Source of the DNA: a virus
IMG/VR virus record: IMGVR_UViG_3300029267_002792
Strand: one strand, 5' to 3'
Length of the DNA stretch: 64,000 bases
Shown: positions 3,723 through 63,936 of the stretch, piece after piece
Layout: the number at the start of each line of letters is the position of its first letter
Numbering within the stretch: the stretch's first letter is position 1
Translations under genes and position numbers: made by a program
Notes under the pieces: generated by a model
Told to the model about the DNA's origin: nothing
The model's database searches: none
The model's input: the letters and a program-made list of their open reading frames with translations, nothing else

Positions 3723-3855
3723 CCTGTGCCACGCTGAGCCGAAAAAAAACGGTTCTCCTCCACACACATGAGTTCCTCGTTCGAGACGAGGCAAGAACAC
3801 CGCGCTCTCACGCAGTGCCACCGACTGGAATATCGGCAAGCGGTGGTATTGTCAA
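3723..3855 (-). promoter_or_regulatory. Conserved CRISPR leader, copy 1, with TTGACA box
   Basis: Near-identical to the reverse complement of 20177-20286; TTGACA at 3855-3850. Confidence 0.85.
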
Positions 3856-3869
3856 CTATTTTTTAGGCT

Positions 3870-4403
3870 TCAGAACAGGTCTTCTGTCGTGCCGATCTGA
3901 GGGGACGTTTCCCGATCTCGGGCGAACGGAGACTTCCGAATGACTTCCAAGGCTGACGAAGAAGTGCTCACGACGTAGACCCGCACGTTGGTGGTGTGCT
4001 CGGAGTGGCTGCCGAGGAAGACCTTCAACCCCAGCGGTCCAAAAGGGCCGGCAATTCCATCCTCGCCGTCCACGAAGAAGACCTTGACCCGTCGCGTGGC
4101 GTCGTACTCGCTCGGATCTGTGACGTAAGGCTTTCCCGTCTTTTTATCCGTCCGGATACGACTTGCGACAGATCTATAAAGCAGCTCCAGGACTTCCAGG
4201 GGCACAATCCAGTCGGACGGGTCCGGAATCCCTAATGTCCCTGCCAGCCGAACTTTGGTGGGTTTGTCACAGCAGGGGCAGCGACCCACTGAGCCTTCGT
4301 AGATCAACCTTTCCTTGAAACGAGCTTTGGACTTCGACATCTCCACTCTCTGACTCAAAGGAGCTTTAGATTCCAGTATCGCCCATCGAACCCGAGCTAC
4401 CAT
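3870..4403 (-). CDS. Hypothetical protein
   Basis: 177-aa ORF abutting the vWA gene. Confidence 0.7.
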   Translation of the reverse strand: MVARVRWAILESKAPLSQRVEMSKSKARFKERLIYEGSVGRCPCCDKPTKVRLAGTLGIPDPSDWIVPLEVLELLYRSVASRIRTDKKTGKPYVTDPSEYDATRRVKVFFVDGEDGIAGPFGPLGLKVFLGSHSEHTTNVRVYVVSTSSSALEVIRKSPFARDRETSPQIGTTEDLF

Positions 4404-6316
4404 CAGCCTCCCCGCAGGTAGCTAACGAAGGCTCCCGTCACGAGCTGCACCAGATCGTGCCCGAATGTCTGATCCTTCATGATGCGCCAATTTCGAGGAG
4501 GCCCGAACATCTTGCCCATCTCTTTCGCGCCTACGTCGCTCCCGATCAGGACTCCCGTCACTCCGATGCCTTTGCGCCTTGCGTTCTGGATGTTCATCCG
4601 AACAAACGACATGAGCGCTCGGGTACCGTACTGCGCACCATCGTTCCGGACGAATATCGGGAATCCGTCGGATATGACAAACAAGTGCTTTCGATCTGTG
4701 CCATCCTCCAGGTCTTTCAAGGCAACGCGAATGGCGGTGTGAAGAGGTGTCGTGCCCCCAACCCTGGAAGTGGCTGACTCGAAGACCTCCTGTCGGGGGC
4801 GAAATCGGGTGATGTCGACCTGCCCATCTTTCAAAGACTGAAATCCCCATACCCGGCTGGTGACGAACGGAAAGTCCAGCGCCCGGGAGATGATTCGACA
4901 AGCTCTCTCAGCCTGAGCGGTCCGGCGCCCTTGCATAGAGGACGATCGGTCTACTAGTACCAGCGTCCGGAAGCCTCGGCCAAAAGAGTCGACAGCGAAG
5001 ACTGGAAGAGGTTCGCCCGTCATACGACGAGTGATGTAGGCGGGGACGTCTAGCCGTGTTCCAGCGTCCTCGAGAGTGTTGATTCGGCGCCCCAGAACAC
5101 GGTGGAACATGGCTCGGAGCCTCTTCACGGTGTTCTCGTCCTCGTCGTTTAGGAGCGAGCTATCAGAACGTGGCCCGGATGGTTCCACGTCGGTGAAGAC
5201 CACCTTGGCATAGCCCTCATGGCGAATGCGATCGTCGTGATTGAACGCGTTCTTAGTCGCATTTCGGGCCTTGTCCACGAGGCGAAGCATCTGGGCCGAG
5301 GAGGCATCGAGAATGTCTTCGAGCTTGCTCGCGTTTTTCACGTTGGCCGTAATGGCAGCCTGAGCCCGCCTGTCGGCAGCTGCTTCCTCTCCGCGTTTTT
5401 TGTACTTCGACTCTCCAACCTCGCTGGAGATGTCAGATGGAGCCTTTCCAAGACGATTGATCGCGTCCTGAAGGGCCTGGGATCGCTCTTTTAGCCCGGC
5501 ATCAACCTCGGGAGGCTCCCAGGTTTCGTCAGGATGGTCCTCAGACGGCTCTTGCGGGTTGCTGCCCTCTCCGGCCTGCTGCTCGTCCTCGTCCCCTGAC
5601 GCCCCATCAGAGCCGCTCCCGAGCTGCGGGGCAGGTCCGGGCGGAGGGTCCTCCCCTCGCGATTCTCGGATAATTTCCGACACCAGCTGTACTACGAGCC
5701 ACTTCGCCGCTACCAAGCACCCGAAGTAGTCCCGGAAGCGTACCTTCCTCAGGGCTTCCTCCATGTAGGGCACGAAGCGGTCAAGCTTCCCGGGGGGTAT
5801 CGGGTTGCCGCTCGCAACGCAGATGAACAGGGACAGAAAGTCTTGGTGAGCCAGGTTCAGGTGTGCGGCCGACTCCTCCCGTTTCATACGGCGCATGATG
5901 GCCCCGGAGCCACGGTAGAGCAGGCCCCAGAGGGAGATGACGCGCTCGTCATCAAGGACGCCAACGATACCTTCCAAACCCGCCCTCAGCATGCGCTCGT
6001 TGATGGTGAGGTGAGCCTTTTTGGCGACCTGCCCGATCTTCCTGGAGTACTCCTCGATGAACTTCTGCTTCGCTAGGAAATCCGACTGGAACAGGATGTG
6101 GGAGATCTCGTGCTCACAGTACTGGTACGCCCGCGGGTGTTGGAAGGGCACTTCAATCAGGTACCCGTTGGTTCTCGCCACCCCGTCCTGGGAGTTCTTG
6201 AGCCAGAGACGTCGCTTCAGGATGCCAGAGAACACGTCTACGGTTTTGTAGCACATGGCTTTGGGGGACGAGTCCACCTCAACATTGATGAGTGCATCCA
6301 CGTCGATGGTCGACAT
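4403..6316 (-). CDS. vWA-domain protein (CobT/NorD/CbbO-like partner of MoxR ATPase)
   Basis: Start MSTIDVDAL after AGGAGG; HEISH motif; acidic linker; MIDAS DRSSSM, GGTTPL, VISDG. Confidence 0.9.
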   Translation of the reverse strand: MSTIDVDALINVEVDSSPKAMCYKTVDVFSGILKRRLWLKNSQDGVARTNGYLIEVPFQHPRAYQYCEHEISHILFQSDFLAKQKFIEEYSRKIGQVAKKAHLTINERMLRAGLEGIVGVLDDERVISLWGLLYRGSGAIMRRMKREESAAHLNLAHQDFLSLFICVASGNPIPPGKLDRFVPYMEEALRKVRFRDYFGCLVAAKWLVVQLVSEIIRESRGEDPPPGPAPQLGSGSDGASGDEDEQQAGEGSNPQEPSEDHPDETWEPPEVDAGLKERSQALQDAINRLGKAPSDISSEVGESKYKKRGEEAAADRRAQAAITANVKNASKLEDILDASSAQMLRLVDKARNATKNAFNHDDRIRHEGYAKVVFTDVEPSGPRSDSSLLNDEDENTVKRLRAMFHRVLGRRINTLEDAGTRLDVPAYITRRMTGEPLPVFAVDSFGRGFRTLVLVDRSSSMQGRRTAQAERACRIISRALDFPFVTSRVWGFQSLKDGQVDITRFRPRQEVFESATSRVGGTTPLHTAIRVALKDLEDGTDRKHLFVISDGFPIFVRNDGAQYGTRALMSFVRMNIQNARRKGIGVTGVLIGSDVGAKEMGKMFGPPRNWRIMKDQTFGHDLVQLVTGAFVSYLRGG

Positions 6317-6324
6317 GGGACCTC

Positions 6325-62353: not shown

Positions 62354-62526
62354 CCTGTGCCACGCTGGGCCAAAAAAAAAACGGTTCCCGTAAACACACA
62401 CACGCGAGTTCCTTGCCGCCTCCGGCAAGGCAAGTACGCCTCGTATCGTAGGGGAGGCGCCATCGACTGGAATGTCGACTCGTTTGACACGCCAATGAAC
62501 CTACCAGGTAACAGGTGGATTGTCAA
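62354..62526 (-). promoter_or_regulatory. Diverged CRISPR leader, copy 3, with promoter
   Basis: Same three hairpins with different stem sequences; TTGACA(62526)-17-TAGGTT. Confidence 0.85.
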
Positions 62527-63472
62527 GAGAAAAGTTTTCCCGTCCCGCCCTGTTCCGAGGACAGCATCCGACGGCTCGCGCTCAAAGCCTGGTTGGCCTT
62601 CTTGATCGTATGCGCGAACTTGAGCAGGCAGTCTTCGGAGGCTCCGAGGTCGTCGTGCCGCTGCATGACCTCGACGCACCGGACTAGGGCTTCCGAAACG
62701 AGCTGGTAGGCCTCGGCCCGCTTGTTGGTCTCGTCTGTCATGGTCGGCCTAGTCTATGGCGAGGAGGGAGGTGTGTCAAGAGCAAAGAAGAAGGACACTA
62801 CTCCTTGTCCCGACCCTCGACACCCCTATCGTGGGAGGGAACTGTCGCGCCGTGTGGCGCCGGCCTGACGAACTGTGCGGCCCGACCTCATCTCCAGAGC
62901 TACAATGGCCGCGTCCAACGTGTCCACGGGAACCGACTTCCACGTCCCCTGCAAGTCCTGCACTAGAAACCGCATGCCGTCCGCGGTCACACTCGCCTCA
63001 ATAGACCAGCGCATGCCGTCTCCGAGCCACGAAGTGCGACCAACACGCTTGAGGGTGAGGGGAAGACTCATGACGTTACCTTGTACACGTGCCCGAACTG
63101 AACGAGCTGAACGAGCCAGATACGAACGGTCTCCCGCAATCGCTCCATCCGATCCGGGTTGTCCCTGTGCCAGTAGCTGAACTCTTTCAAGTCAGCGTGC
63201 AGATCGTGAACAACATCTTCCGGGAAGACCCACCCCTCGTCATTGATGACAAGGTCGTAGGTGTCGGTAAGCGAAAACTCCGGAATGGTGGGAACAGAGT
63301 CCTGCGCATGAGGATCGAAGGCGAGGGGGATTGAGCCCGAATCGGACGCTGGCGGTGGTTCCGTGTCAGCCTCGGGATTAGCAAGAGCGCGTTCGAGGAT
63401 CTCCAAGGCATGCTTCGGATGCCCCTGACGAAGGAGCCCCACAGCTCTCTCAACCTCAGATCGAAGTGACAT
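62523..63472 (-). CDS. Three hypothetical ORFs between arrays 3 and 4 (62523-62741, 62826-63071, 63068-63472)
   Basis: Minus-strand ORFs; promoter motif at 62775. Confidence 0.62.
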
Positions 63473-63574
63473 GCAGCCCTACCGTACTACGGTCAGGTGA
63501 TCGGGTCTACTCACCTCGAGAAAGCGTGAGATGCCCCAGGGTCCACACCAGCGCGCGATCCCGTGCGAGAAGAG

Positions 63575-63785
63575 GGTCCATCCCCACGCGTGCGGGGAAA
63601 CCTCGTCCTCTTCCTGCTGCGAGGCGAGATACTGCGGTCCATCCCCGCGCGTGCGGGGAAACCTCCTTCAGAAGCTGTTGGAGCTGGGCGACACTCGGTC
63701 CATCCCCGCGCGTGCGGGGGAACCTTTTCGCTCCACGCGGAGGACCACCTGTTCGTCGGTCCATCCCCGCGCGTGCGGGGGAACC
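63575..63785 (-). CRISPR. Mini-array 4: 4 repeats, 3 spacers of 33 bp
   Basis: Repeats at 63575, 63636, 63697, 63758. Confidence 0.95.
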
Positions 63786-63936
63786 CCTGTGCCGACTTGA
63801 GCCAATCCCCGCTGCACGCATGAGTTCCTCGCTCAAGGCGAGGCAAGAACACCGCGCTCTCACGCAGTGCCACCGACTGGAATATCGGCTGTCGAATCAT
63901 CATTTGAAAACTACCAGAAGACACTTCAGTTGTCAA
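63786..63936 (-). promoter_or_regulatory. CRISPR leader, copy 4, with promoter
   Basis: Leader hairpins conserved; TTGACA(63936)-17-TAGTTT. Confidence 0.85.

Follow-up and report, generated by a model that had tools for sequence, protein, structure and literature searches.

Leaders of I-E-type CRISPR arrays in a phage genome probably carry the guide-RNA scaffold of a TnpB-family nuclease

Why should the leaders of apparently Cas-less CRISPR arrays in a phage genome encode a conserved multi-hairpin RNA? A preliminary description of a 64-kb stretch of viral DNA (hereafter the window) proposed that four leaders each carry three hairpins (P1, P2 and P3) on the transcribed strand of their array. 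A covariance model built from the leaders (R1) agrees with this proposal, since it finds exactly four matches in the window, with E values of 1e-30 to 1e-23. The promoter-like sites and scaffold copies are as follows.

3850-3855, minus strand: -35 box TTGACA of copy 1, read from the sequence
3751-3838, minus strand: scaffold copy 1 (R1, 99 bits, E 1e-30; pair counts)
3836-3832 / 3825-3821, minus strand: P1 of copy 1, with loop AUUCCA at 3831-3826
3818-3811 / 3804-3797, minus strand: P2 of copy 1
3791-3786 / 3780-3775, minus strand: P3 of copy 1
20130-20158, plus strand: promoter-like site of copy 2, TTGACA (20130-20135), 17 nt, TGgTAATCT, -10 hexamer at 20153-20158 (consensus reading only)
20176-20263, plus strand: scaffold copy 2, P1-P3 and anti-repeat (R1, 99 bits)
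within 62383-62526, minus strand: promoter-like site of copy 3, TTGACA (62526-62521), then -10 box TGgTAGGTT
62383-62480, minus strand: scaffold copy 3, with P1, P2 and P3 diverged yet paired (R1; pair counts)
within 63803-63936, minus strand: promoter-like site of copy 4, TTGACA (63936-63931), then -10 box TGgTAGTTT
63803-63890, minus strand: scaffold copy 4 (R1), a subtype without the GAACC-T-run segment

The scaffold of copy 2 is identical to that of copy 1, and their alignment (A1) revealed a 29-nt deletion in copy 1 that removes the usual TGnTAnnnT -10 box and the predicted start region, which bears out the caveat voiced earlier about the promoter of this copy. A stricter promoter scan, covering 62000-64000 only, did not list the promoter-like sites of copies 3 and 4. 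R1 also recovered copies on contigs with tnpB orthologues and five further copies (A, B, C, D and S) just past the window, on the near-identical 194-kb contig L029. The genome thus has nine scaffold copies, promoter-driven or co-transcribed (seven of them on L029 itself), and the scaffold is repeated ahead of eight arrays across about 75 kb.

The RNA helices are established by covariation. Among 18 distinct copies, including those of other contigs, 89.8% of the pair cells are paired versus 68.3% after shuffling (0/500), double-change cells number 82 versus 33.7 (0/500), and pairing falls to 31-47% when the partners are slid by 1-3 columns. The eight distinct copies of this genome alone give 90.1% versus 79.1% (0/500), with 10 double-change pairs versus 5.5 (1/500). 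G.U cells exceed A.C cells (35 versus 16 in P1-P3), so pairing favours the transcribed strand, in line with the covariation and wobble support first claimed. The stems had been quoted correctly, with the qualification that P1 has 5 bp and that a sixth, outer G.U pair is confined to this phage. The support for the scaffold structure is comparative, folding energies being unremarkable (z from -0.8 to -2.5, and +0.4 for copy 2). Rfam returned only tRNAs in the window at the gathering threshold, and on L029, with its seven scaffold copies, no family matched any leader at E up to 1. Among the roles offered at the outset that of a protein-recruiting site is favoured; nothing points to a ribozyme.

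The arrays are of I-E type, with a 28-29-nt repeat (GTTCCCCGC...GCGGGGAT..ACC) and 32-33-nt spacers that are diverse and turn over between loci. A search for spacer targets yielded no protospacer and hence no PAM or TAM. The "tail" AACUC and the CAGCGTGGCACAGG segment behind the hairpins are no passive stretch: the tail opens an anti-repeat that pairs with repeat 1.

3774-3770, minus strand: AACUC of copy 1
3769-3751, minus strand: anti-repeat of copy 1
3723-3750, minus strand: P4 loop of copy 1, a T8 run and CGGCUCAGCGUGGCACAGG, abutting repeat 1 (from the sequence)
3722-3695, minus strand: repeat 1 of array 1; the MFE fold pairs its nt 1-21 with the anti-repeat of the leader
3454-3722, minus strand: array 1, five 28-nt I-E-type repeats, spacers mostly 33 nt
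20286-20366, plus strand: unit of copy 2, a 5'-truncated repeat (20286-20305), one 33-nt spacer and a degenerate repeat (20339-20366)
62143-62353, minus strand: array 3, with four repeats, of which the first (62353-62326) is paired to the anti-repeat of its leader
63575-63785, minus strand: array 4, with four repeats, of which the first (63785-63758) is paired to the anti-repeat of its leader

This helix, P4, lies 3' of P3; the anti-repeat pairs with repeat nt 10-20, covaries with the repeat variant of each locus and is paired with repeat 1 by both RNAalifold and MFE folds. Its 11-bp core is paired in 92.1% of cells versus 85.9% after shuffling (0/500), with 13 double-change cells versus 4.1; registers shifted by 2 still pair in 69-72% of cells because the core alternates purines and pyrimidines. 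Repeats with GUGUGCGC or GUGCGUGC are matched by anti-repeats with GCACACAC or GCACAUAC at the same loci, GUAUAC pairs with GUGUAC at L208, and G.U cells again outnumber A.C cells (34 versus 8). The truncated repeat of copy 2 retains the P4 core and AUGGACC, its MFE fold keeps all of P1-P4, and the unit looks like a natural single-guide RNA. The I-E-type hairpin internal to the repeats is retained as well, and in array 1 it includes a compensatory A10-U17 pair. It is a competitor of P4, and its retention suggests that Cas6e-type recognition is also under selection; crRNAs of the Cas6e type carry an 8-nt AUGGACCN handle and a 3' hairpin.

In each of the 18 copies with a repeat tail, the UCCA of the P1 loop can pair with UGGA in that tail, and the only compensatory change in this pairing occurs at L059, where the loop AUACCA meets the tail AUGGUCC. 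A pseudoknot between the invariant loop and the repeat tail is possible, with one compensatory event, and would have a counterpart in RdCas12n, whose stem-1 loop pairs with nt -4 to -2 (PMC12216341).

The segment between anti-repeat and repeat bears on two readings at the level of transcription and of DNA. Behind the anti-repeat stands a T8-T10 run in copies 1, 2, 3 and B, and a T5 run in copy D, as might be expected of an attenuator or terminator controlling read-through to the repeats. The run has no adjoining G+C-rich hairpin; copies 4, A, C and S lack it, as do most orthologues (among which the L064 copies alone have a short U-run); and a scan for terminators in 62000-64000 listed nothing at copy 3, the only T-run leader there, so that we regard such control as very improbable. 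The last 40 nt or so also recall an integration leader: besides the T-run (5/9 copies), some copies have a CAGGTC hexamer in the P4 loop (CAGGUC in D and C; B has CAGGCC instead, and copy 1 CAGCGU), and the two are placed approximately as are the A-tract and CAGGTC of several actinobacterial I-E leaders. In several bacterial I-E leaders the hexamer stands some 10 nt ahead of the repeat. The leaders could then be DNA sites for Cas1-Cas2 and IHF, copied together with the I-E arrays.

The comparison with bacteria argues against this. Exact matches to the 22-nt repeat core (one Y position) are present in 92 bacterial loci of many phyla, in arrays of up to 59 matches per locus. It had been foreseen that the motif might match host leaders; R1 found no match at E < 0.2 in 80 bacterial loci with the same repeat core (610 kb), and nothing in five whole genomes from those loci. 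Bacterial I-E leaders differ by eye from the scaffold leaders, except for the CAGGTC hexamer in some. The scaffold, P1-P3 and anti-repeat alike, is thus missing from the bacterial I-E leaders examined, and the strand-specific G.U pairing, covarying stems and array-less copies likewise have no place in an integration leader, for which we see hardly any likelihood. An integration signal could take up the repeat-proximal 20-40 nt at most. These data uphold the earlier proposal of an RNA module on the transcribed strand that is more than a DNA integration leader.

That the repeat is unchanged in bacteria also brings in an RNA anti-CRISPR, whose anti-repeats would pair with the host I-E pre-crRNA, break the Cas6e hairpin and block maturation, solitary units serving as Racr-like decoys. 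The nine promoter-driven or co-transcribed copies and the near-solitary repeat unit of copy 2 would suit such a role. It leaves P1-P3, their covariation and the conserved placement beside tnpB described below unexplained, it presumes a putative host I-E system, and the diverse spacers with their turnover between loci point to guides, not decoys; we consider it quite improbable.

The module, first described as an unnamed cis RNA module, is no orphan: the same scaffold overlaps the 3' end of a tnpB gene. This gene encodes 473 aa and lies on the minus strand about 10 kb past the window (window-equivalent ~73.8-75.2 kb); it was read from L029, which is 99.98% identical, and not from the window itself.

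L029 6629-8050: tnpB, on the same strand as copy C
L029 7993-8085: scaffold copy C, on the same strand as tnpB, overlapping its last 58 nt

Copy C continues into a 9-repeat array, and copy S sits within the tnpB 5' UTR. Orthologues with 45-56% protein identity were found on eight other contigs (L056, L058, L059, L060, L062, L063, L064 and L208), and in all eight the scaffold overlaps the tnpB end or lies no more than 85 nt from it (R1 E 4e-12 to 6e-5). The overlap is 47-70 nt in L029, L056, L058, L059, L060 and L062, and the scaffold starts 15-85 nt downstream of tnpB in L063, L064 and L208; a second copy lies upstream of tnpB on 4/8 orthologue contigs. The orthologue scaffolds are followed by 28-nt I-E-type repeats with spacers of mostly 33 nt, except at L059, a solo scaffold without an array, at L060, and at the downstream copy of L062, where the contig ends. 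The linkage of scaffold and tnpB is conserved in this clade; at more distant TnpB loci the scaffold was undetected. L059, and probably L035, resemble solo omegaRNA forms.

The catalytic residues of TnpB are intact, the RuvC triad (D226, E317 and D413) and four zinc-ribbon Cys being invariant. The structure model (pLDDT 87) has ISFba1 and ISDra2 TnpB (8iaz and 8h1j) as nearest folds, with LaTranC only fourteenth; by sequence, the best match in the PDB is RdCas12n (E 2e-23), whose structure 9j09 is absent among the fold matches listed by Foldseek. The C-terminal residues 444-473 are modelled as disordered (pLDDT < 50 at 444-449 and 451-473), and the scaffold begins at about codon 455, inside the sequence coding for this tail. 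No tnpA or transposon ends were seen.

The tnpB placement, the anti-repeat and the possible pseudoknot place the scaffold with TnpB omegaRNAs and type V tracrRNAs. We consider it probable that the leaders are the scaffold half of a guide RNA for the phage-encoded TnpB-family nuclease, and the best reading of the sequences is a tracrRNA/omegaRNA-like scaffold of a TranC, type V-U or Cas12n-like system using canonical I-E arrays. If the scaffold is the handle RNA of TnpB, the system would therefore be a phage-borne hybrid of a transposon-derived enzyme and I-E-style arrays. An alternative in which tnpB is unrelated, the arrays being Cas-less I-E mini-arrays for host Cas6e, Cascade and Cas3 and the leader RNA only tuning them, for example by masking repeat 1 from Cas6e or stabilising the pre-crRNA, draws on the repeat core shared with bacterial I-E arrays of many phyla, the 28/33-nt geometry suited to I-E and the compensatory changes that preserve the repeat's own hairpin; phage mini-arrays that borrow host effectors are known. 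Since the scaffold overlaps or abuts tnpB in 9/9 loci of a clade with 45-56% protein identity, occurs without an array at L059 in omegaRNA-like form and in the tnpB 5' UTR, and is lacking from bacterial I-E leaders, we judge this alternative improbable.

As the guide of TnpB, the RNA would start at the TTGACA-17-TGnTAnnnT promoter, about 12 nt before P1, and fold into P1 (5 bp, loop AUUCCA), a variable P2 and P3. The anti-repeat past GGAACUC would pair with repeat nt ~1-21, in cis with repeat 1 and in trans with later repeats, leaving AUGGACC and the spacer as guide, and the P1 loop UCCA would probably pair with the tail UGGA, like the stem-1-loop pseudoknot of the Cas12n sgRNA. TnpB would bind and process this RNA and cut DNA matching the spacer. 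New spacers would probably come from host I-E Cas1-Cas2, because the arrays are canonical I-E in repeat sequence and geometry. Copies 1 and 2, about 70 and 54 kb from tnpB, would have to act in trans, and this distance counts against the guide-scaffold reading, as do the I-E-type hairpin kept in the repeats, the lack of a -10 box in copy 1 and the fact that Cas12r, the closest functional precedent with I-E-like repeats, works without a tracrRNA. The nine leader scaffolds could in addition pair with host I-E pre-crRNA, because the anti-repeat matches a repeat unchanged in bacterial I-E arrays, and so block Cas6e maturation and hand host and newly acquired spacers to the phage nuclease; we think this extension unlikely. 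If true, the arrays would have a dual use, serving a class 1 system of the host as well as the TnpB of the phage.

On the guide-scaffold reading, apparently Cas-less phage arrays would become a complete and testable RNA-guided system with an effector of 473 aa, whose guide architecture can be read straight from covariation. It would be a clear instance in nature of a TnpB lineage that works with canonical type I-E arrays already in existence, not with arrays grown from its own omegaRNA, a route left open by a survey of TnpB and Cas12 (PMC10691335). Tracr-like scaffolds would be fused to the leaders of many dispersed arrays; copy 2 would provide a natural single-guide unit, and one further copy lies in the 5' UTR of the nuclease gene. 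The system also suggests how phage nucleases that have no adaptation genes could rely on I-E adaptation by the host.

Among known systems, Cas12n (type V-N, formerly V-U4 or c2c9) also has a small TnpB-like effector, no adaptation genes, a tracrRNA that starts in the sequence coding for a disordered C-terminal tail and heads to a downstream array, and a multi-stem scaffold whose stem-1 loop forms a pseudoknot with nt just 5' of the guide (here possible). PAM sharing with co-occurring type I systems has been reported for c2c9, and AcCas12n prefers AAG; Cas12n proteins are further marked by an A-rich 5'-AAN PAM and by expanded REC/WED domains. Unlike Cas12n, which averages ~544 aa, the protein described here has 473 aa and plain TnpBs (8iaz, 8h1j) as closest folds, is phage-borne and has canonical 28-nt I-E repeats, with the scaffold ahead of eight arrays over ~75 kb. 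IS200/IS605 omegaRNAs (ISDra2, ISFba1) share the overlap with the tnpB 3' end, the guide after the scaffold and the nearest folds; they differ in that the guide here comes from CRISPR spacers and that neither tnpA nor transposon ends accompany it. The Cas12r-CRISPR of Thermus Lalka phages likewise pairs a phage TnpB-like effector with short arrays behind it, whose 29-bp repeats and 32-33-bp spacers resemble host I-E and whose spacers have been proposed to be acquired through the I-E module of the host. Cas12r has 564 aa, belongs to a thermophile branch (no Thermus phage was among the tblastn matches listed) and needs no tracrRNA, in contrast to the covarying scaffold and anti-repeat found here. 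TranC and type V-U variants are similar in their TnpB-sized nuclease with intact RuvC domain, the absence of a nearby tnpA, the split of the guide into a scaffold (tracr- or reRNA-derived) and CRISPR units, and arrays downstream of the gene. Phage-borne TranC is known (e.g. CauTranC9); TranC repeats are reported at 32-38 bp, whereas those of this phage are 28 nt and of I-E type, and LaTranC ranks fourteenth among the fold matches of the phage TnpB. The general idea is already published for Cas12n, TranC and Cas12r, and the present case is an extension of this known ground.

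The window is phage-like DNA of about 60% G+C that encodes 36 tRNA genes and a Ro60 homologue, and cultured phages gave no DNA match to it or to the leader. It carries four short arrays with the 28-nt repeat GGTTCCCCCGCACGCGCGGGGATGGACC (transcribed sense) and 33-nt spacers. The conserved leader described earlier from the sequence, with its hairpins P1, P2 and P3, is present upstream of all four arrays, and inspection showed its stems, loops and linkers to be correct as quoted. A covariance model of the leader (R1) matched exactly these four copies in the window, with E values of 1e-30 to 1e-23, and no other match with E < 2 was obtained over the window.

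Leader copies in the window (R1 matches) and the deletion in copy 1
3751-3838, minus strand, copy 1
20176-20263, plus strand, copy 2
62383-62480, minus strand, copy 3
63803-63890, minus strand, copy 4
3838-3850 versus 20136-20177 of copy 2, alignment, 29-nt deletion in copy 1

The preliminary description had cautioned that the best -10 box of copy 1 overlaps P1, and both the -10 box and the predicted start site indeed fall within the deletion relative to copy 2. It is possible that copy 1 is silent, or that it is transcribed by read-through from the upstream gene at 3870-4403 (minus strand). A sigma-70 scan of 62000-64000 did not include the leader promoters among the sites listed, since no more than three of the six positions in their -10 hexamers agree with TATAAT. 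In copy 2 the distal half of repeat 1 is gone and one spacer is retained; the unit is still predicted to fold as P1-P4, P4 being the anti-repeat:repeat helix, and looks exactly like a natural single-guide unit. The tRNA genes lie in clusters on the plus strand at 20795-32050, the first about 430 nt past this unit, and positions 26003-27802 encode the Ro60 vWA-domain protein. The window also holds, at 48742-49113 within a predicted coding sequence, a long imperfect TCGTCC-like hexamer repeat of about 57 copies, where a 185-nt period is repeated twice as well.

An exact-protein look-up followed by comparison identified a metagenome contig of 193,864 bp that shares 99.98% identity with the window and extends past position 64000. 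The contig coordinates are consistent with circular permutation of a genome of about 190 kb; on that reading, the region lying 116.5 kb ahead of the window start would coincide with the one about 10 kb past the window end. In the stretch of this contig beyond the window end (L029), R1 and inspection revealed five further copies of the scaffold (P1-P3 plus the anti-repeat), all on the same strand, together with a tnpB gene; no tnpA was called near tnpB.

Features of L029
Copies A, B and D, same strand, all three associated with an array and a promoter-like site of the form TTGACA-17-TGnTAnnnT
6629-8050, tnpB, 473 aa, overlapped by copy C
Copy C, overlapping the last 58 nt of tnpB and followed by a 9-repeat array
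Copy S, shortened, in the tnpB 5' UTR behind its own TTGACA-17-TATGTA site

Two neighbouring spacers of array B (L029 6273-6305 and 6334-6366) are identical, which indicates that a repeat-spacer unit was duplicated within the array. A full-length phage tmRNA gene comes directly after array C and adjoins the tnpB-CRISPR module, some 9 kb past the window end (L029 8722-9136, plus strand; Rfam RF00023, 134.6 bits, E 5e-53).

The covariation proposed for the stems was recovered in this genome, where 90.1% of pair cells in the eight distinct copies are standard versus 79.1% after shuffling (0/500), and 10 pairs changed on both sides versus 5.5 (1/500). With the other contigs included, 18 distinct copies gave 89.8% paired cells versus 68.3% shuffled (0/500), 82 double-change cells versus 33.7 (0/500) and a covariation score of 0.548 versus 0.200, and sliding the 3' partners by 1-3 columns left only 31-47% pairing. 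Seven distinct P1 stem sequences enclose a nearly invariant AUUCCA loop; the outer, sixth P1 pair is without support outside this phage. The G-U wobbles noted on the transcribed strand also held up: P1-P3 contain 35 G.U cells and 16 A.C cells, indicating that pairing favours that strand. Folding energies by themselves are unexceptional.

The three-hairpin account stands for P1-P3, but it overlooked an anti-repeat and a possible loop-tail pseudoknot. The tail reported after P3 is present as quoted; it is, however, not just a tail, and begins the anti-repeat. Minimum free energy folds of copies 1, 3 and 4 with repeat 1 included, as well as RNAalifold on nine copies, paired the anti-repeat with repeat nt 1-21 through CUC together with the 8 nt that follow it and, further out, GGAGGAGAACC. 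The 11-bp core of P4 is 92.1% paired in 15 sequences versus 85.9% shuffled (0/500), with 13 double-change cells versus 4.1 and with 34 G.U and 8 A.C cells; a register shift of 2 still leaves about 70% of cells paired, because the helix alternates purine and pyrimidine. The anti-repeat follows the repeat variant locus by locus among other metagenomic contigs with tnpB orthologues, as in L062 and L063 (GCACACAC and GCACAUAC, matched with repeats GUGUGCGC and GUGCGUGC), L059 (CACCCA with UGGGUG) and L208 (GUGUAC with GUAUAC). An RNA anti-CRISPR or decoy role for the leader RNAs would leave P1-P3 unexplained, and we consider it improbable.

The second overlooked element involves UCCA (P1 loop nt 3-6), which is complementary to UGGA of the repeat tail AUGGACC in 18 of the 18 copies with a repeat tail. 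L059 has the loop AUACCA and the tail AUGGUCC, a compensatory change that is the sole covariation event for this possible pseudoknot. In the cryo-EM structure of RdCas12n, stem 1 is lengthened by pairing between its loop and the nucleotides directly 5' of the guide (PMC12216341); a similar pairing here would account for the near-invariance of the P1 loop.

To the question of whether the leader belongs to the host, exact matches to the 22-nt repeat core occur in 92 bacterial loci, in long arrays, in bacteria that include Vicinamibacterales, Streptomyces, Nocardiopsis and Actinopolyspora. The scaffold was not detected by R1 in 80 of these I-E loci (610 kb; best E 0.2), nor in five whole bacterial genomes with the repeat core (150 pre-filtered candidates scored per genome). 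This speaks to the refuting condition set in the preliminary description and indicates that the hairpins are not the host Cas1-Cas2/IHF leader. The bacterial leaders differ in look from those of the phage, and the sole likeness is CAGGTC, a hexamer that lies about 10 nt ahead of the repeat in some bacterial leaders and some phage copies. It is very improbable that the leader is a DNA integration leader, although integration might still make use of the 20-40 nt nearest the repeat. The leader matches no Rfam family, and pattern searches with leader and repeat in viral_contigs and metagenome_contigs gave chance matches only.

Blastn of arrays A-C against phages found no target, all 73 spacers matched only themselves among the loci collected in the analysis, three leader-proximal 22-mers found no target in viral_contigs, and no PAM was found. 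Conversely, 845 bacterial I-E spacers gave only short, marginal matches to the phage loci. One Streptomyces I-E spacer (L100) matches 21 of 22 nt at window 26756-26777, inside the Ro60 gene, with an E of 5e-5 for one query among 845 that is too weak to name a host.

The contigs of the closest TnpB relatives for which DNA was available (45-56% identity; L056, L058, L059, L060, L062, L063, L064 and L208) all contain the scaffold (8/8, R1 E values of 4e-12 to 6e-5), either overlapping the last 47-70 nt of tnpB or beginning 15-85 nt past the gene. A second scaffold with an array lies upstream of tnpB in L058, L062, L063 and L064, as array B does in this phage, and spacers are not the same between loci. 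In L059 the scaffold and P4 are accompanied by one repeat-like hairpin and no array, and this appears to be an omegaRNA-like solo form. R1 gave no scaffold match at any of the 64 more distant TnpB loci searched in IMG/VR. Use of the arrays by a host Cascade, with tnpB unrelated, is unlikely in view of this conserved linkage and of the scaffold copies that exist without an array. An attenuator is scarcely credible, since a T-run is found in only five of nine copies and adjoins no G+C hairpin, and most orthologues have none. The Ro60 vWA gene directly adjoins the orthologous tnpB-array module in L063 and L208.

Two other TnpB loci were inspected. L035 (= L198; IMGVR_UViG_3300043958_000118), at 360-525, concerns a solo relative of TnpB, 56% identical across the last 120 aa, whose 3' flank terminates in CCCCCGTGTGTGGGGAATGGTC, an I-E-repeat-like hairpin plus tail, with no array; an omegaRNA sharing P1-P3 was dropped here, as R1 gave no match and the likeness is confined to the repeat-like 3' end. 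L047 (IMGVR_UViG_2806310788_000002) is an unrelated low-G+C phage contig in which short arrays of 30-nt repeats (2600-3000 and 4100-4420) lie on either side of a TnpB-like gene (24% identity). A similar structured leader (CTCAGGCCGGCT...) precedes each array, the downstream one overlapping the gene 3' end, which makes this a parallel architecture in another lineage.

The best-supported interpretation of the sequence data is that the leader, put forward as an unnamed cis RNA module, would be an embedded tracrRNA/omegaRNA-like scaffold of the phage TnpB. P1-P3 and the anti-repeat:repeat duplex, probably with the loop-tail pseudoknot, would form the handle bound by TnpB, and AUGGACC plus the spacer would be the guide. 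Repeat 1 would pair in cis to give a natural single guide, and for later repeats the scaffold would have to come in trans, from any of the nine copies. Adaptation would be borrowed from a I-E system, as suggested by the repeat identity and the 28/33-nt geometry, and as already proposed for c2c9/Cas12n and for Cas12r.

In the TnpB protein, D226, E317, D413 and the four zinc-ribbon cysteines are invariant. Its AlphaFold model (pLDDT 87) is nearest in fold to ISFba1 TnpB and ISDra2 TnpB, next to Cas12f, with LaTranC at rank 14, and the best solved relative by sequence is RdCas12n (E 2e-23). Residues 444-473 are disordered in the model and the scaffold starts at about codon 455; a tracrRNA within the coding region of a disordered tail is the hallmark of Cas12n, an arrangement that the modelled phage tnpB seems to share. 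The identity of this clade does not exceed 34% to the cultured-phage matches listed, or 38% in full-length comparisons within IMG/VR. TnpB-derived effectors with arrays have already been published as type V-U, Cas12n and TranC, including phage cases, and Cas12r as a phage TnpB-like effector with I-E-like repeats. Four features of the present system appear to be new: a distinct TnpB clade, a covarying tracr-like scaffold combined with canonical I-E arrays, the presence of this scaffold, fused to the leader, at eight arrays that span about 75 kb of a phage genome of about 190 kb, and a scaffold copy in the nuclease's own 5' UTR.
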